Shown: in pieces, positions 1 through 33,547 of the stretch
Position numbering within the stretch: the first letter of the stretch is position 1
Layout: the number at the start of each line of letters is the position of its first letter
From: an uncultured bacterium
GTDB lineage: Bacteria; Chlamydiota; Chlamydiia; Chlamydiales; SM23-39
Length of the DNA stretch: 64,000 nt
NCBI GenBank assembly: GCA_963716985.1
Contig: OY970323.1
Span: forward strand, 96,001 to 160,000
Direction: 5' to 3'
Translations under genes and position numbers: made by a program
Notes under the pieces: generated by a model
What the model saw: the letters and a program-made list of their open reading frames with translations, nothing else
Database searches by the model: none
What the model was told of the DNA's origin: nothing

Positions 1-115
1 CAAGGTATCGTATTTTGATTAATAAAAATTGACCTGCCCCCAAAGATCCGCATAAAAGGGGGGGCTTCTCTGTGAAAAGGAAAGGATACGTAGAGAGGTT
101 TGTCTTTTTGCCATC

Positions 116-967
116 TCAATTCCCAATTTCTTTATCAGGCGTTGTTTGTGTTATTGCGGGCGGTAAATAATTTTCTCTAGAGACTACTTTTTTCTGAGTT
201 TTTTCTTCCAGCTCTATTCGTGCCTTTTTTGCGATATTACCACCTGTTTTTGCGGCAGTTTTGTTTTCGACCATGCCAGCTGCATCAGTGCTTTCAGCTA
301 TTTGCCTTGTAGAGAGTTCGGCCAGAGCGGTAAAGATTAGCTCGGCTTCGCTCATGTGATCGCGTAGGTTTTGGGTTTTCAATCCTTTGAGATCTTTGTG
401 TTGTTTTACTGATATACCCGCCCATTCTTGATGAATGATGTTAGTGAGGATTGCAAATTCTCGTGTCTCTTTAATGTCATGGTCTTTCCAATAATCGGTG
501 AGTTTATTGCGCGTCTCTTGACCCATCATGCGCTGTTGAATCCATTTTTCACTTCGTCCATGTTTCTGCCAGGTTTCTCTAGCTCTATCCAACGATCTTT
601 CTGGATCAGTCATTTCTTGTATGCGTTCATACCCTACTTTTGCCAGCCAAAGTTTTATCGGCTCTGCTTTTGGACTGGGGATTGATTGGATCAGTCGTAA
701 TACGGTTTCAGCATTGGCAACATCTGTGAGATATTTTTTACCGTCAGCGGCTTCCAATTTCAGTCGCTTACAATTTGTAAGCGACTGACTGCCTTCTTTA
801 TTGAGTCTGGTTTTTAAAACGTTCCAGTAGTTTCTAGCTGCCTGAAAATCAGATTGTTGAGTCAATATCTGAACGATATCTATGACGGAAAAATACCAGG
901 TTTCCGTTTCTTCGTCATACAGGCGACGTACTTTGTAGTCCTCAAAAAGGATCAAGTCATTTTTCAT
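116..967 (-). CDS. Bro-N domain (phage antirepressor-like) protein
   Basis: N-terminus VRRLYDEETETWYFSVIDIV...ARNYWNVLKTRL, then RLIQSIPSPKAEPIKLWLAKVGYERI, typical of this family. Confidence 0.75.
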   Translation of the reverse strand: MKNDLILFEDYKVRRLYDEETETWYFSVIDIVQILTQQSDFQAARNYWNVLKTRLNKEGSQSLTNCKRLKLEAADGKKYLTDVANAETVLRLIQSIPSPKAEPIKLWLAKVGYERIQEMTDPERSLDRARETWQKHGRSEKWIQQRMMGQETRNKLTDYWKDHDIKETREFAILTNIIHQEWAGISVKQHKDLKGLKTQNLRDHMSEAELIFTALAELSTRQIAESTDAAGMVENKTAAKTGGNIAKKARIELEEKTQKKVVSRENYLPPAITQTTPDKEIGN

Positions 968-1050
968 AAGTTGGATTCCAAATAGTGCTTGTCAGTATAG
1001 ACTTGAGGAAGAATTCCTTTCAAAGAAAAGTCTCATCATCAATTGATAAC

Positions 1051-1144
1051 AAAATATTTCCGTATTTTCCCATAAAGAACCTTCTTCCGACACTTTGGAA
1101 TGAATACAACTTGGGGGGTCCACCGGTCAAACCAGTGGCGTACC
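1051..1144 (-). mobile_element. IS200/IS605-family remnant (end hairpin fused to a tnpA fragment)
   Basis: Minus strand reads GGTACGCCACTGGTTTGACCGGTGGACCCCC (hairpin end), directly followed by codons for VVFIPKCRKKVLYGKIRKYF, similar to a TnpA(Y1) N-terminal segment. Confidence 0.6.
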
Positions 1145-1170
1145 TATCGGCAGTTATTTTTTTACGATCC

Positions 1171-1218
1171 CTTAGCGAAGAAATACCCAAAGGCGCCTGT
1201 CGAGTGTTTTTTGACTAG
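1171..1218 (+). pseudogene. 3' remnant of a third copy of the small core gene
   Basis: Encodes LSEEIPKGACRVFFD*, matching the C-termini of 2811-3032 (LSEEIPEGGHKVFFD*) and 23445-23666 (LGEEIPKGEYRVFFG*). Confidence 0.75.
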
Positions 1219-1431
1219 TGCTCTGTCATTAAAATTTGCGCTCTACGCACCCGTTGTGATGTTCCCTTGAGTTTTTTGATTACCTCTTCGAGCTGACTTC
1301 GTTCGTCTGGTGAAAGGCGAACAATATATTTTTTTTTCATGATTGTTACCATTTTTGTTAGTAAAGGAAGGAAATGGTAGCAAAAATTTTAATGCTTGTA
1401 ACTCTAAATTTTAACTATGACAGAGCACTAG
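1215..1431 (-). mobile_element. Internally deleted IS630-family element (MITE-like)
   Basis: 15-bp inverted ends CTAGTGCTCTGTCAT (1215-1229) and ATGACAGAGCACTAG (1417-1431) with TA/CTAG termini. The minus-strand 41-aa ORF 1215-1340 (MKKKYIVRLSPDERSQLEEVIKKLKGTSQRVRRAQIL) resembles an IS630 transposase N-terminus. Confidence 0.75.
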
Positions 1432-1445
1432 CCAGATGGTAAGCA

Positions 1446-2334
1446 ATGTCTAAACTTCCATACGTTTTTCTTGCTCTCCCGCATGAGTTTTTGACGGAGG
1501 ATTTTTTAAAAGATCCTGTCATGATGCGCTTTGTTGTATGGATGTTCAAACGTATCTCTCCCAACTCTTCGTTGGTTCCTTTGAAGGGAATGAGCAAGCA
1601 GCTGCTTCTCGATCCATTTGAATTCATGTTTGGTAGAGAAAGATGCGCTTTGGCCGCGGGCATCTCCCTCAAAAATGCACGTACAAGGCTGGAACAGCTA
1701 ATCGGCCTTGGATATATCAAAAAGGTGGCCGGCAAAGGGGCCAGCACTTATTCGGTTTATTGCCTAGAGACGGGAGCTCTTCGTCAGAGTGTTAACGGCC
1801 AGCAAAATGAACAGCAGCTAGAACAACAGACCGGCCAGCGAACGGGCCACAATCTAGAAGCGCAGATCCCAGATCTTAAAATTATAAAAGAGACGCCTAA
1901 CGTTATCTTGAAAACGGTCGACAGGTCGCCTTTTTCAGACAAACAGAAAAGGGATCTTCAAGGATTGCTTGCATATTGCCAAGATAAGGAGCTTCGGATT
2001 TCAGAGCGCGCCTTGAGAAGATGGATTCGTCTCTATGAATCGGAGCGTATAACGGATCATCTCTCATTGTTGCTAAAGGGGGTCGAAGGAATTAAAAAAC
2101 CTGAGGCATGGATGGAGGTGGCCTTGAAAGAAAATTATTCTGGTCAGAATAGCAACATCAAAGTGAATCGGCTTTTTACAGAGGGATTTGTGCGAAGAAA
2201 TAATTGGACTGATATCAAAATAACGCAATCCTACTGCACTCACCCGCCTTCCGGCAAAGATTACTCGTTTAAATTGCCTCCAAGATTTTCGGGGAATGTT
2301 GGTCGATTGCTTCGAGCAATACAGCCAAAATTAG
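1446..2334 (+). pseudogene. Phage-type replication initiator, frameshifted near the C-terminus (ORF reads through to 2486)
   Basis: Highly similar to 22078-22968. A 2-bp deletion near 2283 (CCTCCAAGATTTT vs CCTCCAGAAGGTTTT) bypasses the ancestral TAG at 2332-2334. Confidence 0.75.
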
Positions 2335-2344
2335 GAAGGAAAGC

Positions 2345-2827
2345 TTGGAAGCAAAGATCAAATCTCCTGAAAATTCAGGAAAAATACAGGCGAAGGGAAA
2401 ATATAAGAAGGGATGCTCAGGCAATCCGAATGGAAAGCCAAAAGGCGCGCGAAATAAAGCCACCCTGGCAGCAGAAGCCCTTTTAGAAGGTTCTTTAGAC
2501 AAAATCTGCAAGAAAGTCGAAGAAGAGGCTTTAAACGGAAACATGCAGGCCGCAAAAATGATCTTGGAGAGATTTTTGCCGCCCAGAAAAGATCGATGCA
2601 TCGAAATCGCCCTCCCCTCGATAGACACCTTCAAAGATGTGCTCAATGCCGTTGGATTTATCGTCAATGCAGTAGGGAAGGGCAAGATCACTCCTTCTGA
2701 GGGAGAATTGCTCGCTAAAACGGTAGAAAGCTATTCAAAGGCTCTAGAGGCTTGCGAATTCGAATCCAGACTAAAGAGCTTAGAAGAAAATCTAAATGAT
2801 AGGGGTAAACATGAAACTAGCAAATAG
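2345..2827 (+). CDS. DUF5681 domain protein (terminase small subunit-like)
   Basis: KKGCSGNPNGKPKGARNK motif. Near-identical to 22979-23461; start is TTG here and ATG there. Confidence 0.75.
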   Translation: MEAKIKSPENSGKIQAKGKYKKGCSGNPNGKPKGARNKATLAAEALLEGSLDKICKKVEEEALNGNMQAAKMILERFLPPRKDRCIEIALPSIDTFKDVLNAVGFIVNAVGKGKITPSEGELLAKTVESYSKALEACEFESRLKSLEENLNDRGKHETSK

Positions 2828-3032
2828 AAAACGGGTGGAGGTGTTAGAAAAGGCTTGTAATCCAGAGAGGGGGAAACCCTCTTATGCCTTGGTCATATAC
2901 AGCCCTGAAATATCAGATCAAATTTCTGGACTTGATGTAGATGCTGATTTTGTAGTGGCTTTGCCTGATAATGGAAGAGGCGATCTCAGCGAGGAAATAC
3001 CCGAAGGAGGACACAAGGTGTTTTTTGATTGA
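2811..3032 (+). CDS. Small conserved hypothetical protein of the element core
   Basis: Overlaps the DUF5681 stop; close paralogue at 23445-23666. Confidence 0.7.
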   Translation: MKLANRKRVEVLEKACNPERGKPSYALVIYSPEISDQISGLDVDADFVVALPDNGRGDLSEEIPEGGHKVFFD

Positions 3033-3060
3033 ACTGGAGTTGTTTTGCATGAAGTTTAAG

Positions 3061-3219
3061 GATAATTTTGCCGGCGCTGGCAAGTCAATCCTTCAGTTGG
3101 TTACAAAATGTAACCATCTCACTGCACTTTACCGGCGCGGGTAACCCAATAATGAACGGAAAAGGAATTGCTCATGCCCAGAAGTGCCCATTCAGATTTG
3201 ACTCCAAGAACTTACTGAT
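3061..3219 (+). pseudogene. Fragmented dinD-like remnant with palindromic cassettes
   Basis: Segments read DNFAGAGKSI, HFTGAGNPIMNGKG, IAHAQK and QELTD, matching pieces of DinD 23729-24616 at the syntenic position. Confidence 0.6.
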
Positions 3220-3384
3220 CGCTATCTCCTTGATAATTACGTAGGTATGACTAAGGTGCGGTTTTTTATGCATAGCACTACACAGTAAAATGCATAGTCG
3301 TGCTACAGGCGCCGTATAATTGAGTAGCTATTGCCCCAGAAGGAAGGCAAAACGCAACGATTTCCAATGACCCTCTCCCATAAA

Positions 3385-3993
3385 CTATTTATAGGCCAAC
3401 CCGTTATGATGGCACCATTCGACTGCTGTTTTGCGTAATCGATTCTTTTGGTATTCGTACCACTGATCTTGAATCTTATAGGCTTGAATTGCCGTATGGA
3501 ATCTCCCAAATGCACCCTTTCCTCTAATAGCGCGAGCAAGGACTTCTTGCATTTTGCTGTCTTCCAACGAGAAAACAAACTCTTCCATGATCTCATACTT
3601 GTTTAATTCCCATCGGGAAGGAAGCGGAACGTACTCATCCGAATCTAAAACACTTGCATCGAGTTCAGATTCATCATCCTGTTCCATTTCTTCAATTTCC
3701 GTCAGTGAGAGAATTTCTCCAGAGGTTCGATTCACATAAAACGAGATGCAATCTGATTGCATATCAAACGCGTCGACCAGTTGAATGAGGTCGACAGGGT
3801 TCTCACCTTTCTTTACTCCGTCGTTTTTCATAAGACTGTTCAGCTTTTCCCTCTCTTCCATTAATTTTGCCTCCTCCCAGGTAAGACCAAAGGGAGCGCC
3901 ACCTTCCGTATGTCCAGCAATAAATTGAAAGTTTTCATCACACTCTGGCTCATCCAAATACAGCGCTGCATTTTTTCTCTTGCGGTTTCTCAT
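3385..3993 (-). CDS. UPF0158 family protein with N-terminal FIAGHTEGGAPFGLTWEE extension
   Basis: YEIMEEFV...LARAIRGKGAFGRF...QWYEY...AVEWC signature. Confidence 0.75.
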   Translation of the reverse strand: MRNRKRKNAALYLDEPECDENFQFIAGHTEGGAPFGLTWEEAKLMEEREKLNSLMKNDGVKKGENPVDLIQLVDAFDMQSDCISFYVNRTSGEILSLTEIEEMEQDDESELDASVLDSDEYVPLPSRWELNKYEIMEEFVFSLEDSKMQEVLARAIRGKGAFGRFHTAIQAYKIQDQWYEYQKNRLRKTAVEWCHHNGLAYK

Positions 3994-4015
3994 GTTTTGC
4001 TCCGATGCAGATCGA

Positions 4016-4849
4016 TTATTTTGAATGATAAATCCATGAGAAAATATCGGGCAAATGTCCCCAAAAGTACTCGAATGGTCGGAGATCTTTCACCTGATGG
4101 TGCAGCATATTTTTCCATTCGGATAAAAACTCCGATTTTTGAGGATGTTGCTCAATCGTTATCAGGTTGGGCATTGGCATTTTTTTAAAGGCGCATTTGC
4201 CTTTGAGTGATTCTAAGAGTTTGGCTATATCGGTAAGGCGATGTCGATCTTGGTAAAGATGAACGACGTCATACAGATCCCGAGGACGGGCTCGTTCTGC
4301 AAGAGCACGCAGCTTCTCAGCAAAAATCTCTTCATAGGAATAACTTAAAATTTGTGGCACAACGCTTGGCCGATCAGAATAGTCATGAAAAATCACTCGC
4401 TTTTCAGGCTTGAGCACAATTTGTTCGTCAGCTGTGAGATCGAGTTTAATAGAAGGATAGGGAACTGGCTGTTTCAATGGGCCTCGATAGGACAGCTTAC
4501 CTTGCACCGACAGGCTGCGATGAGGGTCTAGGGAGATCAGATTTTCAGGAATTTCAATCCCCGACTGATCATAGACCCACTGCGCGATCTCTTTTAAGAT
4601 AGGCCGCAGTGCTTCTTCTTTCATTTGCTGAGAATCCAGTAGAGTGAAGTCCAAATCTTCCGAAAATCGATAGTGATTAAAAAAGCATTTTTTAAGGCAT
4701 GTGCCACCTTTAAAAACCCACGAATCTCTCGTTTGCGGATGATTTTGGATGCCGATCAGCATCCATCCCAAAACATAATCTTTCTCAATAGTGGAAGACT
4801 GTAATCCAAACTCTTTTGCTTTTCGCGAAATTTCAAATTTATTAATCAT
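4016..4849 (-). CDS. abiEii: Type IV TA toxin, AbiEii/AbiGii nucleotidyltransferase
   Basis: IEKDY, FKGGTCLKK, RFSEDLDF, EKLRAL and RPRDLYD motifs. Confidence 0.92.
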   Translation of the reverse strand: MINKFEISRKAKEFGLQSSTIEKDYVLGWMLIGIQNHPQTRDSWVFKGGTCLKKCFFNHYRFSEDLDFTLLDSQQMKEEALRPILKEIAQWVYDQSGIEIPENLISLDPHRSLSVQGKLSYRGPLKQPVPYPSIKLDLTADEQIVLKPEKRVIFHDYSDRPSVVPQILSYSYEEIFAEKLRALAERARPRDLYDVVHLYQDRHRLTDIAKLLESLKGKCAFKKMPMPNLITIEQHPQKSEFLSEWKNMLHHQVKDLRPFEYFWGHLPDIFSWIYHSK

Positions 4850-5646
4850 TCTTTTAGTCCTTCAGGAATCCATAATTTCCATTTTTTGATGAGACGCTTG
4901 CCCTTGGACGAAGGATCTAATTGTGAATTTCCTTCGCTAAGGTGTCCTAGACAATATGCAATCCAATTAACTTCTTGCGGCTTTATTTTCGACAAAATGA
5001 ATCCTAATCTTTTGAATATTGTTTTGTTTTTCATCTTGTCTGTGTATTGAACTAATATGTTTAAATCGCAATTGCTTGAGGCTAGGTATTGTTGGAACAA
5101 ATCAATCACGGAACGAATCCCTCCTCCAGTGGCAGGATCATCCAACATATCGATGATTGTTTTATGAGGATCGGATACTTGGACTTTCATTTGATCTTTC
5201 CAGATGGTCTTGAGTCCAAACATTTTGTCGGGCGCTGATTTTTTTATCAAAAATGCCAATCCTGCAACAAATTGCCCTTTCTGATTTAGGCGTCGAGAGG
5301 TAAAGACGATGGTCGATTCGAAAATCTGTTCGGTGAGACCCCAATACTGGGCCGCAGACCATCCTCCGATATAGCAGGGAGAAAAGATTTGAGAGGCTAT
5401 TATCCATGGATCGAGAGGGCCGCCATCGGGAGTTTCTGCAGCTATGTCTACTGGGAAATATAGCCCCCGCCTGACTCTTCGCAGCCAGCCATTTTTTGCC
5501 CATGAGGACAGATACAGTCTTGCCTGCTCCCTTGAGACGTTTAATGTTTCTGCTACCAAACTTACTGATATGCAACCTTTTGAATTGCGAAGCACCTCTG
5601 AAAGTCTCTTACGAGATAATTTGCCCAGCCCCGCCAACTCATCCAT
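4846..5646 (-). CDS. abiEi: Type IV TA antitoxin AbiEi (wHTH plus C-terminal domain)
   Basis: GWLRRVRRGLY, YIGGWSAAQYWGLTEQ and SDPHKTIID motifs; 4-bp overlap with the toxin gene. Confidence 0.88.
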   Translation of the reverse strand: MDELAGLGKLSRKRLSEVLRNSKGCISVSLVAETLNVSREQARLYLSSWAKNGWLRRVRRGLYFPVDIAAETPDGGPLDPWIIASQIFSPCYIGGWSAAQYWGLTEQIFESTIVFTSRRLNQKGQFVAGLAFLIKKSAPDKMFGLKTIWKDQMKVQVSDPHKTIIDMLDDPATGGGIRSVIDLFQQYLASSNCDLNILVQYTDKMKNKTIFKRLGFILSKIKPQEVNWIAYCLGHLSEGNSQLDPSSKGKRLIKKWKLWIPEGLKE

Positions 5647-5708
5647 GGTACATCCAAGGCGTTAATCGTGTTTGAAAAGATAGGTTATCCATGATTTAGA
5701 TGTACCAT
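5645..5708. promoter_or_regulatory. Possible AbiEi autoregulatory operator (inverted repeat)
   Basis: ATGGTACATCCAA (5645-5657) and TTAGATGTACCAT (5696-5708) match 12/13 as inverted repeats at the abiEi start. AbiEi proteins are known to bind promoter IRs. Confidence 0.35.
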
Positions 5709-5773
5709 AAGGGTATGTTTTAACCAAAGAAAAAATATGCTTTTGTTTTATTTTCAATGATTTAAATACACCC

Positions 5774-6541
5774 CTATTCTTGATCTCGGAGGTGTTTTCG
5801 GACAGCTGCCCGATAGTTGCAAAAATCGCAGGATTCTTTCGGCTCTGGACATATTGGCTCTTCAAGACAATTTCGAATCTGGAATAGGGTCGACTCTACC
5901 CAGGAGTCATCCCCGGTGTAAGGAATAATGGAAATCGAAAATTCGAGTTTTCCTTCGAACCCCTCTTTAGAAGTATCTCCATTGCAATAGACGAAATAGC
6001 CGGTGTTCGACACCTTGAAGTCTTTATGCCTCAAAAGCCACTGATAAACTTCCATCTGGTTTTTGTAAGATTGGCGATATTCCTCATCAAGCGTTATTTC
6101 TTTACTGGTACTCGTGGCCTTGTAATCGACGACAATCAATTCTCCAGCAGGGGTAACCCACAAATCATCCACGGCCCCGCTGACCAGAAAATTCGAGGCT
6201 TCGTGCAAATATTGGACTCCTTTGAAATTTTGACGCCATGCATCGAGGTCGGCGTGGGCGAAAGGAATGGCGTTGATCCCATACTTGACCATCAGGGGAT
6301 GCGGTTCCCCTCTAACCCTGTAAATATCAAATTCCTTTTTTAAGAGCGTGTCGACCGCCGTGTTCAAAGTAAAAGGCAAGGAGCCGGGGTGACCTGTACC
6401 ACACCGTCTATCGAGGTAAAAGCAGCATGGGCAGCTAAGAAAATCTTGGATTTTTGAACGACTGAGTTTGAAAGGTTTCTTTTGCCCCTTCGTAAATAAA
6501 TTTCTTGATCTTTGCGGAGTGTATAAACTCATTATTTTCAT
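5774..6541 (-). CDS. PD-(D/E)XK nuclease (Cas4/AddB-like)
   Basis: SRSKIQDFLSCPCCFY, GAVDD, IVVDYKAT, QMEVY and CDFC motifs. Confidence 0.85.
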   Translation of the reverse strand: MKIMSLYTPQRSRNLFTKGQKKPFKLSRSKIQDFLSCPCCFYLDRRCGTGHPGSLPFTLNTAVDTLLKKEFDIYRVRGEPHPLMVKYGINAIPFAHADLDAWRQNFKGVQYLHEASNFLVSGAVDDLWVTPAGELIVVDYKATSTSKEITLDEEYRQSYKNQMEVYQWLLRHKDFKVSNTGYFVYCNGDTSKEGFEGKLEFSISIIPYTGDDSWVESTLFQIRNCLEEPICPEPKESCDFCNYRAAVRKHLRDQE

Positions 6542-6734
6542 CCAGATTTATTATCGTAATATATCAGATTTGTGTTTTGTATGCACATTTTGTTTTGTAT
6601 AATGTGTTCTAAAGCAAATTGTTTAGGTAAGTTTGGATGGATCTAGTCGATTTGCTTTGTTACAATGATCGATCGGGTCCGATCGGAGTGAAAATCGGAA
6701 CGAATGGCTAACTGATCGATGATGGAAAAAGCTT

Positions 6735-8189
6735 ATGTTCGAACAAACGTTCAAAAACATTGACGATATTCTTCACAAAGATGCCGGCTGTTCCAGCGAG
6801 CTGGACTACACTGAGCAGACTTCATGGCTCCTATTTTTGAAATATTTAGACGCGCTAGAAAACGATAAAGCGATGGAGGCTGAGTTAAGCGGAAAAACAC
6901 ATCCTCACATTCTTGAAACCGCTTATCGCTGGGGAAGTTGGGCTGCGCCGAAAGGCAAAGATGGAAAGATTGATCACAATGTGGCCCTAACCGGAGACGA
7001 CTTGCTGGTTTTCGTGAATCAGAAGCTTTTCCCCTACTTAGTTGGATTCAAATCCAAAGCGACGGGTCCGAATACCATCGAATACAAGATCGGGGAGATT
7101 TTCGGGGAAATAAAAAATCGCATCCAGAGTGGCTACAACCTGCGCGAAATCGTTGATCGCATTGATGAACTGCAATTCCGCTCGCAGACAGAGAAGCATG
7201 AATTGTCTCACCTCTACGAAGCCAAGATCAAGAACATGGGCAACGCCGGGCGCAATGGTGGTGAGTATTACACTCCTCGCCCGCTCATCCGCGCCATAGT
7301 AAAAATAGTGCAGCCGAAGATCGGTGAAACAATCTATGACGGTGCAGTCGGTTCAGCAGGCTTTTTGTGCGAGGCATTCGATTACCTAAGGTCAAAGGGT
7401 AACCTCACCACAAAAGATCTCACCACGCTCCAGACGAGCACTTTCTATGGTAAAGAGAAAAAACCTCTTGCCTATGTCATCGCAATCATGAACATGATCC
7501 TGCATGGCATTGAGGCTCCAAACATCTTGCGCACCAATACGCTATCTGAGAATCTTGCCGACATTCAGGAAAAGGATCGCGTGGACGTGATCCTCGCCAA
7601 TCCGCCCTTCGGCGGCAAAGAACGTAAGGAAGTCCAACAAAACTTCTCCATTCGCACTGGCGAAACAGCCTTTCTATTCCTTCAGCACTTCATCAAGATG
7701 CTTAAGTCTGGTGGCCGAGCTGGAATAGTCATCAAAAACACTTTTCTTTCCAATCCTGACAACGCTTCAGTGAGTCTACGCAAACTCTTGCTAGAAAACT
7801 GTAATCTGCACACCGTGCTCGACTGTCCTGGCGGCACGTTTCAAGGGGCTGGTGTAAAAACCGTAGTACTCTTCTTCGAAAAAGGCACAAAAACGCGGAA
7901 AACGTGGTTCTACCAGCTAGACCCCTGCCGCAACCTCGGTAAAACCAATCCGCTCAACGATGCCGATCTCGCCGAGTTCATTGAATTGCAGAAGACCTTT
8001 GTCGAATCGCCCAAGAGCTGGAGTGCGGATGTTAATAGCATTGACCAGATGACTTTTGACCTCTCTGTGAAAAACCCGAATAGCGGCGAGGCGGTGACTT
8101 ACCGTAGTTCAACCGAGATTTTGGATGAGATTTCCACACTGGATGATGAGAGCGCAGAGGTACTAGCGAACATCAGGGGGCTGCTATGA
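6735..8189 (+). CDS. hsdM: Type I RM N6-adenine methyltransferase
   Basis: GEYYTPR, YDGAVGSAGFL and NPPF motifs. Confidence 0.95.
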   Translation: MFEQTFKNIDDILHKDAGCSSELDYTEQTSWLLFLKYLDALENDKAMEAELSGKTHPHILETAYRWGSWAAPKGKDGKIDHNVALTGDDLLVFVNQKLFPYLVGFKSKATGPNTIEYKIGEIFGEIKNRIQSGYNLREIVDRIDELQFRSQTEKHELSHLYEAKIKNMGNAGRNGGEYYTPRPLIRAIVKIVQPKIGETIYDGAVGSAGFLCEAFDYLRSKGNLTTKDLTTLQTSTFYGKEKKPLAYVIAIMNMILHGIEAPNILRTNTLSENLADIQEKDRVDVILANPPFGGKERKEVQQNFSIRTGETAFLFLQHFIKMLKSGGRAGIVIKNTFLSNPDNASVSLRKLLLENCNLHTVLDCPGGTFQGAGVKTVVLFFEKGTKTRKTWFYQLDPCRNLGKTNPLNDADLAEFIELQKTFVESPKSWSADVNSIDQMTFDLSVKNPNSGEAVTYRSSTEILDEISTLDDESAEVLANIRGLL

Positions 8190-18867: not shown

Positions 18868-18920
18868 AAAAAATCTGGGTGAGAGGATTTGAACCTCCGA
18901 CCTCTTGCACCCCATGCAAG
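18868..18920 (-). repeat. att site: 53-bp copy of the tRNA-Pro 3' half
   Basis: Identical to 33467-33519; ends exactly at the anticodon stem. Confidence 0.95.
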
Positions 18921-19050: not shown

Positions 19051-19070
19051 CCTGCCACATACCTGCCACA
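19051..19070. repeat. CCTGCCACATACCTGCCACA putative arm site of element A (left arm)
   Basis: The same 20-mer occurs at 33390-33409; a single TGCCACAT also lies at 18936-18943. Confidence 0.65.
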
Positions 19071-22063: not shown

Positions 22064-22077
22064 CCGGACGACAAGCT

Positions 22078-22968: not shown

Positions 22969-22978
22969 GAAAGGAAGC

Positions 22979-23461: not shown

Positions 23462-23666
23462 AAAACGGGTGGAGGAGCTAGAAAAGGCTTGTAAACCAGG
23501 GAGGGGGAAACCCTCTTATGCCTTGGTCATATACAGCCCCGAAATATCAGATCAAATTTCTGGACTTGATGTAGATGCTGATTTTGTAGTGGCTTTGCCT
23601 GATAATGGAAGAGGCGATCTCGGCGAAGAGATACCCAAAGGAGAGTACAGGGTGTTTTTTGGCTAA
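23445..23666 (+). CDS. Small conserved hypothetical protein of the element core
   Basis: Paralogue of 2811-3032. Confidence 0.7.
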   Translation: MKPANRKRVEELEKACKPGRGKPSYALVIYSPEISDQISGLDVDADFVVALPDNGRGDLGEEIPKGEYRVFFG

Positions 23667-24616: not shown

Positions 24617-24667
24617 CTCTATTCGTGATTAGAGCTTTATGTAAGCTATGCAATTTTTTAATACATA

Positions 24668-25432: not shown

Positions 25433-26172
25433 ACATGTTTGAGTGCCGCTTGTCGGTAACGACAAAAAGGACAGGCATTGTTGGAGGGCGGGCATTGTTC
25501 TCGTTCTAAGCATGCGCGAATTTGCAATAGGGTGGGTTCGATCCAGCTGTCATCGCCTTCGTAAGGAAGAACTGAGATCGAGAATTCAAGCTTGCCGCCA
25601 AATTCTTCTCTAGAATCATCGCCATTACAGTAAACAAAATACCCTGTTTTTACGACTGCAAAGCCTTTGCATCGAAGAAGCCATTGGTAGATTTCCATCT
25701 GGTTTTTATAGGATTTTCGATAGTCTTCATCCAGCGAAATCTCTTTCTTGGTGCTAGTCGCCTTATAATCCACAACAATCAACTCCCCAGTTGGGGTGAT
25801 CCAGAGATCATCAACTGCACCCGTAATGATGAAATTCGTTGGTTCATGCAGATATTGAATACCCTTTAAGTTCATTCGCCAATCGTCAAGCTCGGGGTGT
25901 GAAAACGGGATCGCATCAATCTCATGGTTAATAAGAAGGGGATGGGGTTTTCCTTGTAACCGATAGATATCAAATTCTTTTTTTAAAAGAGTGTCGACGG
26001 CTGTGTTGAGAGTGAACGGGAACCCGGGAGGCTGAGCAGTCCCGCACTTGCGGTCGAGATAGAAACACCGAGGACAGTCAAGAAAATTCTGTATTTTTGA
26101 GCGGCTCAGTTTAAAAGGACGCGACTCTTCTGAGGAAAATAAATTTCTAGATCGATTTGGATTGTAATTCAT
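25399..26172 (-). CDS. PD-(D/E)XK nuclease (Cas4/AddB-like)
   Basis: Clear paralogue of 5774-6541 with the same motifs. Confidence 0.85.
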   Translation of the reverse strand: MNYNPNRSRNLFSSEESRPFKLSRSKIQNFLDCPRCFYLDRKCGTAQPPGFPFTLNTAVDTLLKKEFDIYRLQGKPHPLLINHEIDAIPFSHPELDDWRMNLKGIQYLHEPTNFIITGAVDDLWITPTGELIVVDYKATSTKKEISLDEDYRKSYKNQMEIYQWLLRCKGFAVVKTGYFVYCNGDDSREEFGGKLEFSISVLPYEGDDSWIEPTLLQIRACLEREQCPPSNNACPFCRYRQAALKHVQDFPPGLSHA

Positions 26173-26384: not shown

Positions 26385-28133
26385 ATGAATCAACCAACAC
26401 TCTCATCTCTTATTTGGGCTATTGCCGATTTATTGCGTGGAGATTACAAGCAGTCCGATTATGGCAAAGTGATTCTCCCCTTCACTATGTTGCGTCGCTT
26501 GGATTGTGTGTTAGCCCCGACTAAAGACACTCTATTGGCCGAATTTTCAAGGCTACAGAAAAGCGGAGTGGATCCTGAATTGTTTTTGCAACGCAAATCC
26601 GGCCACAAATTTTACAACACGTCCCCCTTGGACATGAAAAAGCTCATGGATGACCAAGACCACATCAAAGAGAACCTCTTTAATTACATTCAGAATTTTT
26701 CAGCTTCTATACGGGACATCTTTGAGCGATTTGAATTTGCAACCCAAATCGAGCGTCTTCAGAAATGTGGCTTGTTGTACCGCGTAACCGAACAATTTTC
26801 CAAATTCAATCTGCATCCCGATGCGCTGGACAATGCGCAGATGGGGCTTGTTTTTGAGGAACTTCTTCGCAAATTTGCCGAACTTTCAAATGAGACTGCC
26901 GGAGAGCACTTTACTCCCCGTGAAGTAATCAAGCTAATGGTCAACCTGCTTTTCATCGAAGACAATGAGATCTTGACCAAGCCCGGCGTAGTGCGAACCA
27001 TTTACGATCCGACCGCGGGAACGGGCGGAATGTTGTCAGTGGCCAGCGAGCATTTGAGGGGGCTTAATCCCCAGGCCAGCCTTACGGTGTTCGGGCAGGA
27101 ACTCAACCCTGAATCCTACGCCATCTGCAAAGCCGACATGCTCATCAAGGGTCAGGACGTCGCTAACATCATTTGTGGCAACACCCTTTCCGAAGACGGC
27201 CACCTCGACAAAAAATTCGACTACATGCTTGCGAATCCCCCATTTGGCGTCGAATGGAAAAAAGTCGAAAAAGAGGTTCGCAATGAACAGGAGACGCAAG
27301 GGTATAACGGGCGTTTCGGCCCCGGTCTGCCGCGAGTCAGCGATGGCTCACTCTTGTTCTTACTGCATCTTATTTCGAAAATGCGACCAGCAAAAGACGG
27401 GGGTAGCAGACTGGGCATCGTTCTTAACGGCTCACCGCTTTTCACGGGAGGGGCAGGGTCGGGCGAGAGCGAAATCCGCCGCTACGTGCTCGAGAATGAT
27501 TTGGTAGAGGCCATTATTGCTCTGCCTACCGATATGTTTTATAACACGGGTATTTCCACTTACGTCTGGATTCTCTCTAACCGCAAGCCAGAACACCGCA
27601 AAGGCAAGGTACAACTGATCGATGCAGGAAACTTTTGGCAAAAGATGAGAAAGAGCCTGGGCAGCAAGCGCAAAGAAATGAATGACGAGCAAATCGAAGA
27701 GATCACACGGCTCTTCGGTGGTTTTGAGGAAGCTGAACGAGATGGCGCGCTAATTAGCAAAATTTTCCGAAATGAGGATTTTGGATATAGGACCATTACT
27801 GTTGAAAGGCCACTACGCGATGAAGCCGGACAAATTGTAATGGGGGTCAAGGGCAAGCAGAAAGGCAAGCCGCAAGCCGACAATAATCTGCGCGACACCG
27901 AGAATGTGCCTTTGGACGAGAATGTGGAAGCCTATTTCAAGAGGGAGGTTCTTACTCACGCAGCGGATGCCTGGATTGACCATGAGAAAACTAAGGTTGG
28001 CTATGAGATTTCATTCAATCGCTATTTCTACGTATTTAAGCCGCCCCGCCAATTAGGTGAGATCGATGCCGAGCTAAAGGATGTTACTAACCGCATTCTA
28101 GTCATGCTCAAAGAAACAGGAGTATCGGCGTGA
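26385..28133 (+). CDS. hsdM: Type I RM N6-adenine methyltransferase
   Basis: GEHFTPREV, YDPTAGTGGML and NPPF motifs. Confidence 0.95.
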   Translation: MNQPTLSSLIWAIADLLRGDYKQSDYGKVILPFTMLRRLDCVLAPTKDTLLAEFSRLQKSGVDPELFLQRKSGHKFYNTSPLDMKKLMDDQDHIKENLFNYIQNFSASIRDIFERFEFATQIERLQKCGLLYRVTEQFSKFNLHPDALDNAQMGLVFEELLRKFAELSNETAGEHFTPREVIKLMVNLLFIEDNEILTKPGVVRTIYDPTAGTGGMLSVASEHLRGLNPQASLTVFGQELNPESYAICKADMLIKGQDVANIICGNTLSEDGHLDKKFDYMLANPPFGVEWKKVEKEVRNEQETQGYNGRFGPGLPRVSDGSLLFLLHLISKMRPAKDGGSRLGIVLNGSPLFTGGAGSGESEIRRYVLENDLVEAIIALPTDMFYNTGISTYVWILSNRKPEHRKGKVQLIDAGNFWQKMRKSLGSKRKEMNDEQIEEITRLFGGFEEAERDGALISKIFRNEDFGYRTITVERPLRDEAGQIVMGVKGKQKGKPQADNNLRDTENVPLDENVEAYFKREVLTHAADAWIDHEKTKVGYEISFNRYFYVFKPPRQLGEIDAELKDVTNRILVMLKETGVSA

Positions 28134-29467
28134 GTTTTCAGCACTATGAGAAGTATACGGGCAGCGGAATGTGGTTGGGAGAAATTCCCGAACATTGGGA
28201 TATTTCCAAAAGCAAGTTGATTTATCGCGAGGTAACGGATCTTTCAACTACGGGCAGCGAGGATCTTTTATCCGTCTCAGAATATTACGGAGTAAAGAGA
28301 CGAACTGAAGTTATGGAGAATGACGATCATATTTCTCGCGCCGAATCACTTGAAGGATATAAAAAATGCAATGCTAATGACTTAGTAATTAACATTATGC
28401 TTGCGTGGAAGCGTGGATTGGGTGTTAGCGACTTTAATGGTATCGTTAGCCCTGCTTATTGCGTGTTTCGTCCTATTAATGAAAATTTTATCAACCCCAA
28501 ATATTTTCATTATTTACTTCGTACGGACCTCTATACCGGTTTTTTTAAGAGTCGATCCACAGGTGTCATTGATTCAAGGTTGCGCCTTTACCCCGACGTT
28601 TTCGGATCAATCGAGATCATATTTCCACCCAAGCCGGAGCAGGATAACATCGTATGTTTTCTTGACCGCGAAATCGCCAAAATCGATGATCTCATCATTC
28701 AGCAGCAGCAACTCATCGAACTTCTGAAAGAAAAGCGCCAAGCCATCATTTCGCACGCCGTTACCAGAGGGCTGAATCAATATGCCCCGATGAAAGAAAG
28801 CGGAGTGGAATGGCTAGGTGTAGTGCCAGAGCATTGGGCACTCTCAATACTGGGCTTTGAATCATGGGTACGAGCTCGCTTGGGATGGAAAGGATTAAAG
28901 GCCGAAGAGTATGTCGATAATGGATTCATTTTCCTAGCCACACCAAATATCAAAGGAATCGACATCGACTTTGAAAATGTCAACTACATAAACGAGCAGC
29001 GTTATGAAGAATCTCCTGAAATTAAACTACGTGAAGGTGACGTATTATTGGCAAAAGATGGCTCCACATTAGGGATAGTAAACGTCATTCGTCGCTTAGA
29101 CCGGCCCTCTACTGTGAATAGCTCGATTGCAGTTATCACCCCACACCAAAACCTACACGGAATATTTCTTTATTACCTATTCCAGAGTAGCTTTATGAAA
29201 AATATCATTGAAATAACTAAGGGAGGAATGGGAGTCCCTCATCTCTTTCAAGAAGATATAAATAAATTCCGTATTCCTATGCCCCCATTTCATGAGCAAG
29301 TCTCCATCGCCACTCACCTCGATCGCCAGACCGCCAAGATCGACGCGCTCACCGATGCCGCTTGCAATGCAATCACCCTGCTTCAAGAACGACGAACCAC
29401 TCTCATCTCTTCTGCCGTCACAGGCAAGATCGACGTGCGCGGAATCACTCAACAGGAAGTCTCATGA
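28130..29467 (+). CDS. hsdS: Type I RM specificity subunit
   Basis: WLGEIPEHW, PPKPEQ, MKESGVEWLG and ISSAVTGKIDV conserved regions. Confidence 0.95.
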   Translation: MSFQHYEKYTGSGMWLGEIPEHWDISKSKLIYREVTDLSTTGSEDLLSVSEYYGVKRRTEVMENDDHISRAESLEGYKKCNANDLVINIMLAWKRGLGVSDFNGIVSPAYCVFRPINENFINPKYFHYLLRTDLYTGFFKSRSTGVIDSRLRLYPDVFGSIEIIFPPKPEQDNIVCFLDREIAKIDDLIIQQQQLIELLKEKRQAIISHAVTRGLNQYAPMKESGVEWLGVVPEHWALSILGFESWVRARLGWKGLKAEEYVDNGFIFLATPNIKGIDIDFENVNYINEQRYEESPEIKLREGDVLLAKDGSTLGIVNVIRRLDRPSTVNSSIAVITPHQNLHGIFLYYLFQSSFMKNIIEITKGGMGVPHLFQEDINKFRIPMPPFHEQVSIATHLDRQTAKIDALTDAACNAITLLQERRTTLISSAVTGKIDVRGITQQEVS

Positions 29468-32400
29468 GCCTGCACCGTGAAATCAATTTCGAAGACGAGA
29501 TCTGTGACTATCTCGCAGCCCACGGTTGGCTATATGCCGAAGGAGACGCAGCCCGATATGACCGCTCGCGCGCCCTCTTCTCTGAAGATGTGATTGCATG
29601 GATTCAGTCTACTCAGCCAAAGATATGGGAGGCGCTCAGCAAAAACCACGGCGTACAAGCCGCCGAGATTTTGCTCGGACGCTTGCGCCAGGAGTTGGAT
29701 ACGCGTGGTGCCCTTGATGTGTTGCGTCATGGCTTTGAAATGGTAGGCCTCCGGCAACCGATTCAGCTCGCGCAATTTAAACCTGCGCACACTTTGAATG
29801 CCGACATTTTGGCCAGATATGATGCCACCTATCTGCGCGTAGTACGCCAAGTGCGATATTCGCTGCACAACGAAAATTGCATTGACCTGGTGTTGTTCCT
29901 CAATGGAATTCCCACGGCAACGGTTGAACTTAAGACTGATTTTACGCAGGACATCGAAGATGCAGTCGATCAATATCGGTTCGATCGTTTGCCGAAACTC
30001 AAGGGACATGCTGCTGAGCCATTGCTCTCCTTTCCGAGCGGCGCACTTGTCCATTTTGCCGTAAGCAACAGCGAAGCGCGCATGACCACAAAACTCGAAG
30101 GTCCGGCTACGCGTTTTTTGCCATTCAATCAAGGCAGTCCCGATGGTGGGGCGGGAAATCCCCTGAATGATCGCGGTCACCGTACATCTTATCTTTGGGA
30201 ACGTATCTGGGAGCGAGATAGCTGGCTGGAAATTCTAGGCCGATATCTTGTGACGCGTAAGAATAGTAAAAAACAAATCGAAAACATCATCTTCCCTCGC
30301 TTTCACCAGTTGGATGCTACACGCAAGCTGGTTGCCGCCGTACTCCATGAGGGGCCTGGTGGAAAATACCTAATCCAGCACTCTGCCGGTTCGGGCAAGA
30401 CTAATTCGATTGCATGGTCAGCTCATCTCTTGGCAGATCTCCATGATACGAACAACAAAAAACTATTCGATTCAGTTCTGGTCGTGTCAGACCGAACGGT
30501 TATCGACGCTCAGCTGCAAGAAGCAATCTTTGAGTTTGAGCGCACATTAGGTGTTGTAGCCACCATCACAGGGGACAGCTCCAGTAAAAGCGACGAGCTG
30601 GCAAAGGCGCTGTCAGACAACAAAAAAATCATTACTTGTACAATTCAGACATTTCCCTATGCGCTCAAGACTGTGCAAAAGCTGGCCTTGACCCAAGGTA
30701 AACGATTCGCTGTAATCGCGGATGAGGCGCACTCCTCGCAAACAGGAGAAACTGCAACCAAGCTGAAGGCTGTGCTGTCAGCCGAAGAATTGCAGGAATT
30801 ACAGGACGGGGGAACGTATAGCATTGAGGACGTCCTGGCATCGCAGATGTCGGCGCGTGCGAAAAACACTGGCATCACCTTCGTTGCTTTTACTGCTACG
30901 CCCAAGGCGAAGACATTGGAGCTATTCGGTCGCCGACCCCATCTCGATCGCCCAGCGGGACCGGACAATCTCCCCGCACCGTTTCATGTCTATTCGATGC
31001 GCCAGGCCATTGAAGAACATTTTATCCTCGACGTGCTCAAAAACTATACTCCTTACAAACTTGCCTACAAACTGACGCATGACGGCATCGAATACGACGA
31101 ACATCAAGTTGAGCAGAGCGCTGCCAAGAAAAAGATTTTTCGCTGGGTCAAGCTACACCCGTACAACATCTCCCAAAAAGTACACATCGTGGTGGAACAC
31201 TTCCGCGAAAATGTGGCGCCCTTACTGAATGGCGAAGCCAAGGCCATGGTCGTTGTGGGCAGTCGCGCCGAAGCCGTGCGCTGGAAATTAGAGATGGATC
31301 GATACATTCAGGATCGATCTTACGCGATTGGCACCCTGGTCGCCTTTTCCGGGGAAATAGTCGATGCAGATCTCGGCCCCGTCTCAGAAACCAGCAAGGC
31401 ACTGAACCCAAATCTTCATGGCCGTGATATACGCGAGGCTTTTGGGACTGCTGAATATCAAATCTTGTTGGTTGCTAACAAATTCCAGACAGGATTCGAC
31501 CAAGACATGCTCTGCGGTATGTATGTAGACAAAAGGCTGGGGGGTGTTCAGGCGGTCCAAACTCTCTCCCGTCTCAATCGGGCCCGTGTCGGAAAAGATA
31601 CAACTTATGTGCTGGATTTCGTGAATGACGTGAGGCAAATTCTCGATGCTTTCAAAACCTATCATACGACAGCTGAACTCACTGACGTCACAGATCTGAA
31701 TCTTGTATTCAATCTACGCGCCAAGCTGGATAAGGCGGGGTACTATGACGATTCAGAGGTGAATCGCGTGGTCGCCACGGCAATGGATCCGCAAGCAAAG
31801 CAATCTGACCTTATGAAAACGTTGGAGCCCGTTGCCGAGCGTCTAGTGAAACGCTACAGAGATATTCAGAATAAATTTAAAGCAGCCAAAGAGGCGGGTC
31901 GTGATGGCATGGCTGAAGAAGCTCAAAACGAACTGGATGCCATCGTTCTCTTCAAAAGCGACATGGATTCGTTTCAGCACATGTATATTTTTCTTTCTCA
32001 AATGTTTGACTACGGTTCAACAGCGCTTGAAAAGCGGCATATCTTTTATAAGCATCTCCTACCACTGCTTGAGTTCGGACGTGAACGCGAAGGAGTGGAT
32101 CTCTCGAAGGTCGTGTTAACCCACCACAAATTGCAAGACGAAGGCAAGCTCAATTTACCGCTTGGAGAGGGGGAGCGGATAACTCTGGATCCTCTAACGG
32201 AATTGGGGTCGGGAGCCGTACACACCAAGGAAAAAGCGGCGCTCGCCGAAATCATTGAACAAGTAAACCAACTTTTCGACGGCAACCTGTCAGACGATGA
32301 CAAGCTGATCTATGTTAACCACGTGATCAAGGGAAAGCTTCTCGAGTCAGAAGTGCTGAAGGAACAAGCGATCAATAATACCAAGGAACAATTTGCAAGT

Positions 32401-32592
32401 TCCTCCGATCTCATCAAGGGGATCGAGGGCGCCATTATGGATGCTCTCGAAGTGCACTCGTCGATGAGCAAACAAGCACTAGCCTCGGAACGACTGCGTC
32501 AAGGCTTGAAGGACGTGCTGCTTGGTCCGGTGCAGCTCTATGAGGCCTTGCGGTCAAAAGCAACATCGGCTGCCAGGAGTCTGCATCCGTAA
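29464..32592 (+). CDS. hsdR: Type I RM restriction subunit
   Basis: IDLVLFLNGIP...ELK, HSAGSGKT, DEAH, FTATPK and QTLSRLNR motifs. Confidence 0.95.
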   Translation: MSLHREINFEDEICDYLAAHGWLYAEGDAARYDRSRALFSEDVIAWIQSTQPKIWEALSKNHGVQAAEILLGRLRQELDTRGALDVLRHGFEMVGLRQPIQLAQFKPAHTLNADILARYDATYLRVVRQVRYSLHNENCIDLVLFLNGIPTATVELKTDFTQDIEDAVDQYRFDRLPKLKGHAAEPLLSFPSGALVHFAVSNSEARMTTKLEGPATRFLPFNQGSPDGGAGNPLNDRGHRTSYLWERIWERDSWLEILGRYLVTRKNSKKQIENIIFPRFHQLDATRKLVAAVLHEGPGGKYLIQHSAGSGKTNSIAWSAHLLADLHDTNNKKLFDSVLVVSDRTVIDAQLQEAIFEFERTLGVVATITGDSSSKSDELAKALSDNKKIITCTIQTFPYALKTVQKLALTQGKRFAVIADEAHSSQTGETATKLKAVLSAEELQELQDGGTYSIEDVLASQMSARAKNTGITFVAFTATPKAKTLELFGRRPHLDRPAGPDNLPAPFHVYSMRQAIEEHFILDVLKNYTPYKLAYKLTHDGIEYDEHQVEQSAAKKKIFRWVKLHPYNISQKVHIVVEHFRENVAPLLNGEAKAMVVVGSRAEAVRWKLEMDRYIQDRSYAIGTLVAFSGEIVDADLGPVSETSKALNPNLHGRDIREAFGTAEYQILLVANKFQTGFDQDMLCGMYVDKRLGGVQAVQTLSRLNRARVGKDTTYVLDFVNDVRQILDAFKTYHTTAELTDVTDLNLVFNLRAKLDKAGYYDDSEVNRVVATAMDPQAKQSDLMKTLEPVAERLVKRYRDIQNKFKAAKEAGRDGMAEEAQNELDAIVLFKSDMDSFQHMYIFLSQMFDYGSTALEKRHIFYKHLLPLLEFGREREGVDLSKVVLTHHKLQDEGKLNLPLGEGERITLDPLTELGSGAVHTKEKAALAEIIEQVNQLFDGNLSDDDKLIYVNHVIKGKLLESEVLKEQAINNTKEQFASSSDLIKGIEGAIMDALEVHSSMSKQALASERLRQGLKDVLLGPVQLYEALRSKATSAARSLHP

Positions 32593-32602
32593 GATTACGT
32601 GA

Positions 32603-33253
32603 TCAGGAAAACATTCCTGCGATAATGGGTTGGAGCGTTTGCCATATCGAACGGAGAGAGGCGATCGCACTTACCGTTTCTTGCGCAGTTTGTAAGAGTG
32701 CTTTCGCAACCGACGGACGGCGCTTCTCTTTCGGCTGGCGCGCCTCATCTGCGATCGCGCTCATCAATTCCAGAATAGCCCCCTTCTGTACATCGGACGC
32801 TTCGGCCGATCTCAGTAGAGCCTCGGTAAAGCTCTTGAGGGATTCTTGAAAAGTTTGCATGGTGGGATCGGTTTTTAACACGGTGATAGAGGCATCGATA
32901 TTTTGCAGGGAACCGGTGATCGATCCTGTGCTGAGAACGCCTATGGCACTTTGGTCAATTTTTATGTTATTCAAGACGAAATCTCCTATGACAGAGGTTC
33001 GCTTGGGAGAGGCGGCTGCGTATCTTTCATAAAATCCTCGGGGCATTCCGGTGCTATCCTCCATATTGCTCAGTTCAAAATTTATGCCACGAATATTTTG
33101 TTCTTCCATTTTCCAAAGGCGCTCCTGGTATAAATCCCAACACTTCAAGCAGAGCGGATGCCTAATTTCTTTCCACGTTCCGAAGAGAAAAAAGGCGCCT
33201 CCACATTGTGAGCATTTCAGATTAGCCCAAGGCGGGTCTTCAGGTTTATTCAT
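32603..33253 (-). CDS. Hypothetical protein with N-terminal CxxC...CxxC and helical C-terminus
   Basis: CSQC...CLKC; start codon uncertain. Confidence 0.6.
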   Translation of the reverse strand: MNKPEDPPWANLKCSQCGGAFFLFGTWKEIRHPLCLKCWDLYQERLWKMEEQNIRGINFELSNMEDSTGMPRGFYERYAAASPKRTSVIGDFVLNNIKIDQSAIGVLSTGSITGSLQNIDASITVLKTDPTMQTFQESLKSFTEALLRSAEASDVQKGAILELMSAIADEARQPKEKRRPSVAKALLQTAQETVSAIASLRSIWQTLQPIIAGMFS

Positions 33254-33388
33254 GTGAGGTTCCGTGGAGAGTTTGATTGTGTAATATAAATCGAGTCGGC
33301 ATTCCATCCCATATGAAAACTTGGATCGATCGGCTTCGACGTGAGTCGCTGCGAGATTGGATTTCGAACGATGGGCCATTTGTGCGTT

Positions 33389-33410
33389 ACCTGCCACATA
33401 CCTGCCACAT
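33389..33410. repeat. ACCTGCCACAT x2 putative arm site of element A (right arm)
   Basis: Matches 19051-19070; ends 56 bp before the att repeat. Confidence 0.65.
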
Positions 33411-33472
33411 TTCAGATTTTTGTGGGTTGGTAGCTGACATCGATGTGATCATAACTCACTGATAAGAAAAAA

Positions 33473-33547
33473 TCTGGGTGAGAGGATTTGAACCTCCGAC
33501 CTCTTGCACCCCATGCAAGTGCGCTAGCCAAGCTGCGCTACACCCAG
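33473..33547 (-). tRNA. tRNA-Pro(GGG), CCA not encoded
   Basis: CTGGGTG/CACCCAG acceptor stem, anticodon arm CTTGC-ATGGGGT-GCAAG, GGTTCAAATCC T-arm. Confidence 0.97.

Follow-up and report, generated by a model that had tools for sequence, protein, structure and literature searches.

The window analysed here, a 64,000-nucleotide stretch (positions 96,001 to 160,000 of contig OY970323.1, assembly GCA_963716985.1), lies in a closed 2.07-Mb genome (G000 below) and carries an integrated island, element A, at a tRNA-Pro gene, with decayed relatives of the island to its left (region B). The nearest protein relatives of the window's open reading frames (ORFs) come from Chlamydiae, Parachlamydiaceae and Rhabdochlamydiaceae, which supports assignment to the Chlamydiota. 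Element A is bounded by two identical 53-bp repeats (18868–18920 and 33467–33519) that match the 3′ end of tRNA-Pro and are spaced 14,599 bp apart, confirming the attachment (att) repeats and the length of the excised circle predicted by an earlier examination of the letters alone (hereafter, the sequence-only reading). These two copies are the only ones in the genome; the further copies that this reading proposed to look for left of the window do not exist anywhere in it. Immediately inside each repeat stands an 18-mer with a tandem TGCCACA repeat, which occurs exactly twice in the 2.07 Mb (at 19053 and 33392) and whose position is conserved in related islands. Arm-type sites of this sort are expected for a P4-like integrase, and the 18-mers are predicted to be such sites. 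The features of element A, in window coordinates, are as follows.

18868–18920, minus strand: attL of element A, also the right border of decayed region B; 53-bp copy of the tRNA-Pro 3′ end
19053–19070, plus strand: predicted left arm-type integrase site (18-mer)
19084–19923, plus strand: accessory 279-aa ORF between attL and int; a single relative at 48%, no match in family scans
19901–21199, plus strand: P4/CP4-type tyrosine integrase (int); Pfam Phage_integrase, Arm-DNA-bind_3 and Phage_int_M, phrog_1 at E 2e-52
21196–21789, plus strand: 197-aa core ORF in the conserved int–alpA interval; 67–90% identity in close relatives, Atlas clusters unnamed
21854–22063, plus strand: AlpA/excisionase-type regulator; Pfam Phage_AlpA at E 5e-9, above cut-off, and phrog_66
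22078–22968, plus strand: probable phage-type replication initiator (rep); phrog_186, DnaD-like, weak at E 9e-4
22979–23461, plus strand: DUF5681, putative small terminase (TerS)-like body without a tail for binding the large terminase (TerL); from phage gene position and a model
22997–23023, plus strand: short inverted repeat in a codon-invariant stretch of the DUF5681 gene, a candidate pac/TerS-binding site
23445–23666, plus strand: 73-aa small ORF with PDNGR, predicted TerL-docking adaptor; from the motif and a predicted complex
23729–25432, plus strand: cargo, Bro-N/PDC-S13-type protein and 254-aa ORF (family scans)
25399–26172, minus strand: cargo, PD-(D/E)XK (Cas4-like) nuclease (family scans)
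26385–32592, plus strand: cargo, type I restriction-modification system hsdM–hsdS–hsdR, frames open (family scans)
32603–33397, minus strand: cargo, 264-aa ORF common to two related islands
33392–33409, plus strand: predicted right arm-type integrase site, the same 18-mer
33467–33548, minus strand: attR (33467–33519) overlapping the intact tRNA-Pro(GGG) gene (33472–33548); from the repeat and a tRNA call

The core genes are co-oriented in the order int, 197-aa ORF, alpA, 296-aa rep candidate, DUF5681 and 73-aa ORF, and all of their frames are open. Family scans upheld the gene order given in the sequence-only reading, which had overlooked the co-oriented 279-aa ORF. They also agreed with its description of defence cargo without capsid or conjugation genes: the cargo includes type I restriction-modification, and the larger ORFs of the element gave no capsid, portal, TerL or relaxase match in Pfam, PHROGs or NCBIfam. 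The psu, delta, sid and alpha genes of P4-like satellites were not found when the element's ORFs were compared with Pfam and PHROGs. The Rep protein is modelled as an N-terminal winged helix, a disordered linker and a C-terminal helical domain, and fold searches with it returned generic winged helices (Z up to 7.6); in other family members, primase-helicases replace rep at the same position. The stretch of rep that encodes the disordered linker holds several short GGCC(A/G) repeats (22335–22480). Phage initiator genes frequently hold the origin in such a stretch.

The 73-aa ORF probably links element A to a phage packaging motor. PDN[GRAE] follows a hydrophobic strand in 36 of 38 aligned small ORFs, and the only other real PDNGR ORF in this genome is the gene upstream of a TerL located at G000:806645-807994. 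The back-translated motif was found in 86 stretches of viral contigs, compared with 4 for a scrambled pattern. In 72 of 87 viral motif matches, there followed a TerL whose best match among 25 reference TerLs was that of this genome (40–93% identity; 66 within 200 nt); of the remainder, 2 lay inside another TerL and 13 had no TerL, and the scrambled control gave 0 of 4. Because the proteins upstream of TerL fall into as many as 49 clusters at 50% identity among all 87 matches, the peptide tracks the TerL clade and not the TerS body. Two phage TerS proteins (L297 and L321; L numbers are our locus handles) combine a DUF5681-type N terminus and the motif in one chain. The TerS of lambda binds TerL through its C-terminal part (PMC6739421; for this source and for PMC4856287, PMC5010888, PMC7846284 and PMC10085698, statements refer to the portions of text available). 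On these grounds, the 73-aa protein probably carries the TerS tail that is missing from DUF5681 and is predicted to dock with TerL. Consistent with this idea, the modelled complex of the small ORF with TerL scored 0.83, against 0.00 for the best of three controls; runs agreed in at least 93% of contacts, the partner pLDDT (predicted local distance difference test) was at least 73 and the predicted interface places small-ORF residues 46–58 on the TerL N terminus. In a rough calibration with our own alignments, the mark used for this score was reached by 116 of 157 solved pairs and by 2 of 215 mismatched ones. The predicted complex supports binding but falls short of proof. A PDB sequence search with this TerL gave no relative at E 0.001. 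Longer homologues of the small ORF were two single-contig proteins; P0151 fuses the C-terminal half of DUF5681 to the small ORF and is possibly a frameshift product.

For DUF5681, gene position in phages is the informative evidence. In viral contigs, the genes 3′ of ORFs with a DUF5681 motif were TerL by PHROGs, and in a second viral set of 80 loci TerL lay no more than 1 kb downstream in 53, further away in 3 and elsewhere in 1. One full-length homologue (L169; HHalign 99.3%, E 1e-20, 131 columns) immediately precedes TerL and portal genes. The DUF5681 model (pLDDT 88) comprises a three-helix N-terminal bundle, a linker and a long antiparallel hairpin, and TerS has been described with three domains that include a helical bundle and an antiparallel hairpin (PMC4856287). 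The model therefore shows, as a prediction, the first two of three TerS domains, with the C-terminal part missing. Named TerS profiles do not recognise the family (TerS PHROG matches in 0 of 109 members), a PDB sequence search returned designed helical proteins and was uninformative, and fold scores were low (BFVD best E 7e-3; PDB none under 0.9; VIA best Z 7.3, for the hairpin only). DUF5681 is accordingly TerS-like by its gene position, a putative assignment: the suggestion of the sequence-only reading that it is a TerS stands on position before viral TerL and not on fold, since searches of the HHpred and Foldseek type gave no solved TerS. Within the candidate pac site, 4 of 6 conserved degenerate codons use a single codon, compared with 4 of 76 elsewhere (19 sequences; region chosen post hoc), and its palindrome was not found in five helper loci. 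In Felixounavirus, the DUF5681 gene (L158:3983-4354; L194:10001-10350) is distant from terL, and TerL identity to the host clade is 38%. In a viral contig of 87 kb, the DUF5681 match is closely followed by an in-frame IPDNG (intervening codons partly checked). DUF5681 may be the TerS of Felixounavirus-type phages. A DUF5681 protein has been detected in Salmonella phage virions (PMC8954984).

A tailed helper phage, implied by the sequence-only reading, has a matching gene set in Chlamydiota. TerL of the clade defined above occurs at 72–100% identity near full length in 12 of 301 genomes. Viral contigs of 38–44 kb whose TerL is 66–75% identical carry TerS–TerL–portal–head genes, and their capsid recurs at 78–81% identity in 9 of 301 chlamydial genomes, on contigs that also encode portal, protease, neck, tape measure, baseplate, ParA and primase-helicase. 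The set is complete on a circular 89.5-kb plasmid of Criblamydia sequanensis, which holds all head, tail and baseplate genes; its TerL is 86% identical to that of this genome, and its TerS ends in the same peptide. The terminase and tail genes of that plasmid have already been noted as a putative prophage or 'phage group' (PMC7846284). The best reading of these gene sets is that the candidate helper is a myovirus-like chlamydial phage or phage-plasmid, known here from genes alone. The copy in this genome (G000:C1:801000-810200; L240) is decayed and retains a Holliday-junction resolvase, ParB-methylase, TerS, TerL, GNAT, integrase, insertion sequence (IS) and truncated portal; it therefore makes no particles, and mobilisation would need an incoming phage. 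A phrog_2 tally (190 of 300) was mostly helicase noise and was dropped as a count. Other prophage head modules with TerL, portal and capsid are present in Chlamydiota (L261, L264, L265, L276 and L280; binning contamination is possible), and one of them, L280, has a DUF5681-like gene in the TerS position.

Element A belongs to a widespread family. A DUF5681 homologue is present in 34 of 301 genomes of the phylum, mostly in tRNA islands; DUF5681 thus recurs in other Chlamydiota, where the sequence-only reading had proposed to look for the cassette. Among 37 DUF5681 loci retrieved, many of which stop at contig ends, 24 hold a tyrosine or serine integrase. A replication gene is present in 20, and these genes belong to at least four unrelated types (rep, AAA_25 primase-helicase, D5, DUF3987/RepB and Toprim/DUF927/DUF5906). 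The constant part across these backbones is the pair of DUF5681 and small ORF. The tRNA genes occupied are those for Pro, Leu, Met, Thr, Asn, Phe and Tyr. Relatives that retain both att copies are 10.6–14.7 kb long, sit at tRNA-Pro and carry other cargo, and cores 95–97% identical were found with different cargo. Pfam scans of 115 of 732 neighbouring ORFs found defence genes and no relaxase, type IV secretion system (T4SS), capsid or portal, and a TerL profile had zero matches in 67 chlamydial loci. Enterobacterial circles of 8.6 and 13.3 kb likewise carry full-length DUF5681 homologues, together with an integrase and stray genes for capsid or tail, and the DUF5681 family as a whole comprises 7,013 clusters at 50% identity.

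Several variants stand beside this family. The Waddlia plasmid pWc (L153; 15,593 bp) carries the pair after a D5 primase, the small ORF with its motif, and adds two tyrosine recombinases and ParA, making it a satellite-sized episomal relative. At five loci (L033, L036, L115, L120 and L121) the pair lies beside tRNA-Thr or tRNA-Tyr and heavy-metal or phosphoketolase genes, with neither rep nor integrase in the retrieved sequence; the plasmid of C. sequanensis has similar cargo. Chlamydiota also contain a sister family (L266-L273, L277 and L278) with the order integrase, ORF, helix-turn-helix gene, primase, TerS, TerL plus cargo at tRNAs, with no capsid seen within 20-kb stretches; PMC5010888 mentions an island of 15 kb at tRNA-Thr that encodes a large terminase subunit.

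Region B, to the left of element A, spans about 20 kb (about −1646 to 18867) without int, alpA or a left att; the longest match to a third att within it is a 10-mer. The left edge of the island lies outside the window at about −1646 (G000:94354), where similarity to a same-genus genome stops. That genome was considered as a source of an empty attB and rejected: tRNA-Pro does not follow the similarity break within the 4-kb locus. Region B contains the following features.

116–967, minus strand: cargo, Bro-N/PDC-S13-type protein, 90% identical in a related island
1171–1218, plus strand: 3′ scrap of a third small ORF (sequence match)
1219–1432, no strand: 214-bp miniature inverted-repeat transposable element (MITE) flanked by CTAG and bearing terminal inverted repeats, which links the scrap with copy B
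1446–3032, plus strand: copy B core with frameshifted rep, intact DUF5681 (2345–2827) and small ORF (2811–3032), without int or alpA
3385–6541, minus strand: cargo, UPF0158, AbiEii–AbiEi pair and PD-(D/E)XK nuclease; the AbiE pair is 82–90% identical in related islands
6735–15658, plus strand: type I restriction-modification system broken by two multi-copy IS, at 9199–11113 (hsdS end) and 13107–15074 (within hsdR)
15734–18809, strand unspecified: cargo, 149-aa ORF, AlbA-like protein (93% in a related island) and NERD-like protein (family scans)

The second core (1428–3027) has 92% DNA identity to 22060–23661, and a 2-nt deletion near 2282 makes the rep frame continue into DUF5681. The core copy noticed by the sequence-only reading is thus real but lacks int and alpA and has a frameshifted rep, and the scrap that it assigned to a third copy is indeed the 3′ end of a third small ORF. 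Copies A and B differ at 8% of sites and carry different cargo. Synonymous exceed non-synonymous codon changes in DUF5681 (24 versus 10) and rep (36 versus 23), and the small ORF shows no synonymous excess (6 versus 10). Given that homologues of region B cargo, 74–93% identical, are found in related islands of other genomes, region B derives from the same family. We infer that one or two earlier members once occupied this site and were eroded by IS to what is now region B; the simplest history would be repeated integration at a single tRNA and later loss driven by IS. Of the proposed tandem array, one complete element remains, and its neighbours are about 20 kb of decayed relatives.

A 103-bp MITE with CTAG flanks (L001:18752-18853; window about −1248 to −1146), of which the genome has 29 near-full copies, sits in a direct repeat of 57 bp that precedes a Fic gene and shares its ends with the 214-bp MITE at 1219–1432. 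Left of the island are three tandem porin genes of the Legionella_OMP family (L001:9548-13253). At the other end of the window, a group II intron reverse transcriptase (56992–59812; above the NCBIfam cut-off) lies beside tRNA-Ala and is followed by an IS 72% identical to that at 9199–11113.

Judged by its genes, element A is predicted to work like a pac-type PICI. With the SatelliteFinder model (PMC10085698) as the standard for the PICI core, it has an integrase with specific att sites, an AlpA-type regulator and no tail, holin or portal genes. Its replicase is represented by the phrog_186 hit only, and relatives have clear primase-helicases in that place; its TerS fits in gene position and motif and has no match among named TerS profiles and folds. 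A capsid-morphogenesis gene is absent, as it is in many type B PICIs, and the element has neither the capsid, portal and TerL of capsid-forming PICIs nor the psu, delta, sid and alpha of P4-like satellites. With Gram-negative PICIs such as EcCICFT073 (Fillol-Salom 2018, PMC6092414; PMC10085698), it shares a size of 10–15 kb, a tRNA-type att, a P4-like integrase, an accessory ORF, AlpA, candidate genes for replication and packaging, defence cargo and the absence of tail and lysis genes. Unlike them, it has no capsid-morphogenesis gene and no Rpp, its DUF5681 is missed by the TerS profiles used here and its predicted TerL-binding peptide is on a separate protein; its host phylum does not appear in the main text of PMC10085698 (0 occurrences of 'chlamyd'). 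In pac-type SaPIs (Staphylococcus aureus pathogenicity islands), which use their own TerS and Ppi (PMC6739421), as is predicted for element A, an element-encoded TerS recruits the helper TerL to the element's own site. The SaPI TerS is one chain under the Stl repressor, whereas that of element A is apparently split and under AlpA-type regulation. Rpp of Escherichia coli PICIs (PMC6739421) resembles the small ORF in being a small mimic that redirects the helper terminase; however, Rpp imitates the DNA-binding domain of TerS and has helper TerS as its partner, whereas the small ORF imitates the C-terminal tail of TerS and is a predicted TerL binder. The proposed helper corresponds to the 'phage group' of chlamydial plasmids (Koestlbacher 2021, PMC7846284), whose terminase and tail genes lie on the C. 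sequanensis plasmid; that study reported putative prophage-derived plasmid genes, and here there is a complete myovirus-like head–tail set, in several families, plus a satellite.

Taken together, these data lead us to read element A, with a probability of about 0.7, as a PICI-like satellite of environmental Chlamydiota with a predicted split TerS, whose widespread family probably takes over the DNA-packaging motor of a tailed chlamydial phage. This sustains the packaging-hijacking interpretation of the sequence-only reading through the TerS-like gene position, the motif–TerL link and the helper genes. In such a model, the integrase would insert the element at tRNA-Pro (the anatomy is observed) and, by analogy with Gram-negative PICIs, AlpA would switch it on and Rep would replicate it. 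The small terminase would be split over two overlapping genes: DUF5681 would recognise DNA and oligomerise on it, probably at a site inside its own coding sequence, and would pair with the 73-aa protein, whose C-terminal PDNGR peptide, tied to the TerL clade by genomics and shared with the end of helper TerS, is predicted to dock helper TerL. The restriction and abortive-infection cargo would protect the host.

A number of observations weigh against this reading. The joint between 33519 and 18921, by which the sequence-only reading proposed to recognise excision, and with it an excised circle, was not seen in the low-depth contigs of the sequencing runs searched, the best of which had a share of 0.20. 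No capsid or tail genes of the helper exist elsewhere in this genome. DUF5681 co-occurs with the helper TerL clade (8 of 17 genomes with it versus 25 of 283 without), but with a comparison list hand-picked from strong profile rows it is also enriched with other TerL clades (11 of 33 versus 22 of 267), so the association is not specific, and the overall load of mobile DNA confounds it. In most viral matches, the similarity to DUF5681 is limited to the N-terminal 30–80 residues, 8 of the 80 viral loci have no room for TerL and 15 showed none with our profile, and no solved TerS was matched by fold. The rep assignment is weak, at E 9e-4 with generic winged-helix folds; no core ORF matched a capsid-morphogenesis or capsid-size gene in Pfam, PHROGs or NCBIfam; and the candidate pac site was noticed post hoc. 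Several loci hold the pair without integrase or rep in the stretch examined, beyond Chlamydiota the ORF after DUF5681 lacks the motif, and tandem accretion is deduced from decayed remains beside a single complete element.

Some of these observations would suit other explanations. The small ORF, with DUF5681, might be a defence-only decoy that blocks helper TerL. The island would then be an integrative defence element without preferential packaging, carried between hosts by generalised transduction or together with plasmids. The motif and the binding predicted for it suit inhibition as well as hijacking, which counts against our reading, the cargo is defensive and no packaged or excised form was seen in the run contigs. 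We nevertheless find this unlikely: blocking TerL would require neither a DNA-binding TerS body nor a replication gene nor a codon-invariant site in the DUF5681 gene, and the pair is fixed beside replication genes across unrelated backbones. Element A could instead be the satellite of a different helper, as the several other TerL clades and head modules in Chlamydiota (one, L280, with its DUF5681-like TerS) would allow and as the proposed helper clade is missing from 25 of 33 other DUF5681-positive genomes, or, given the decayed resident helper, a now inert relic from a family whose hosts mostly have no living helper. The motif is tied to one TerL clade, however, and the open core frames, intact att and arm sites and near-identical cores with other cargo speak against a relic, making either version quite unlikely. 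That leaves transfer as an integrative mobilisable element, which the sequence-only reading named as the alternative should DUF5681 show no TerS-like fold and the cassettes associate with relaxases or oriT. Environmental chlamydiae do have F-type conjugation systems that might move such an element (PMC5010888, PMC7846284), and the pair does occur on pWc. Yet no relaxase or T4SS family was found in the window ORFs or the 115 of 732 neighbouring ORFs scanned (oriT was not searched for), TrwC was absent from 5 of 5 genomes searched, this one among them, and 11 of 11 plasmids with a DUF5681 match were typed as non-mobilisable; conjugation also leaves the terminase motif unexplained, and we consider it very improbable. 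That the tandem structure is an assembly artefact, another alternative raised by the sequence-only reading, can hardly be credited. No contig or read crosses the att junctions, but duplication during assembly is excluded by the 8% divergence, codon-structured differences and different cargo of the copies, and run X1, possibly from the source sample, has zero-mismatch contigs in region B, in element A and in the flank.

The satellite reading of element A extends what has been reported. Little is known about phages of environmental chlamydiae (PMC5010888), and tailed-phage genes in chlamydiae are already known as the plasmid 'phage group' (PMC7846284). In the main texts searched, with most subscription journals outside the search, we found no description of DUF5681 satellites, the PDNGR motif or chlamydial satellites, in line with the expectation of the sequence-only reading for the last; DUF5681 appeared there only in a Salmonella phage virion proteome and PDNGR only in an unrelated context. 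A broader proposal falls just short of even odds in our judgement: that this is an active three-level system of a myovirus-like phage-plasmid and satellites with a two-gene TerS and an exchangeable adaptor, that DUF5681 is a large unrecognised TerS family marking satellites in many phyla and that PDNGR is a clade-specific docking code.

The finding identifies, in a cultured species, a candidate tailed phage by name, would give DUF5681 a function and proposes a short TerS–TerL docking peptide. If true, it would add a third way to redirect a terminase, besides SaPI TerS and Rpp, and an exchangeable adaptor would let helper specificity switch with DNA recognition unchanged. It bears on two questions: by what route genes pass between strictly intracellular chlamydiae, and what keeps restriction, abortive-infection and CRISPR systems in them. 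A satellite family of this kind would move defence cassettes of 10–15 kb.

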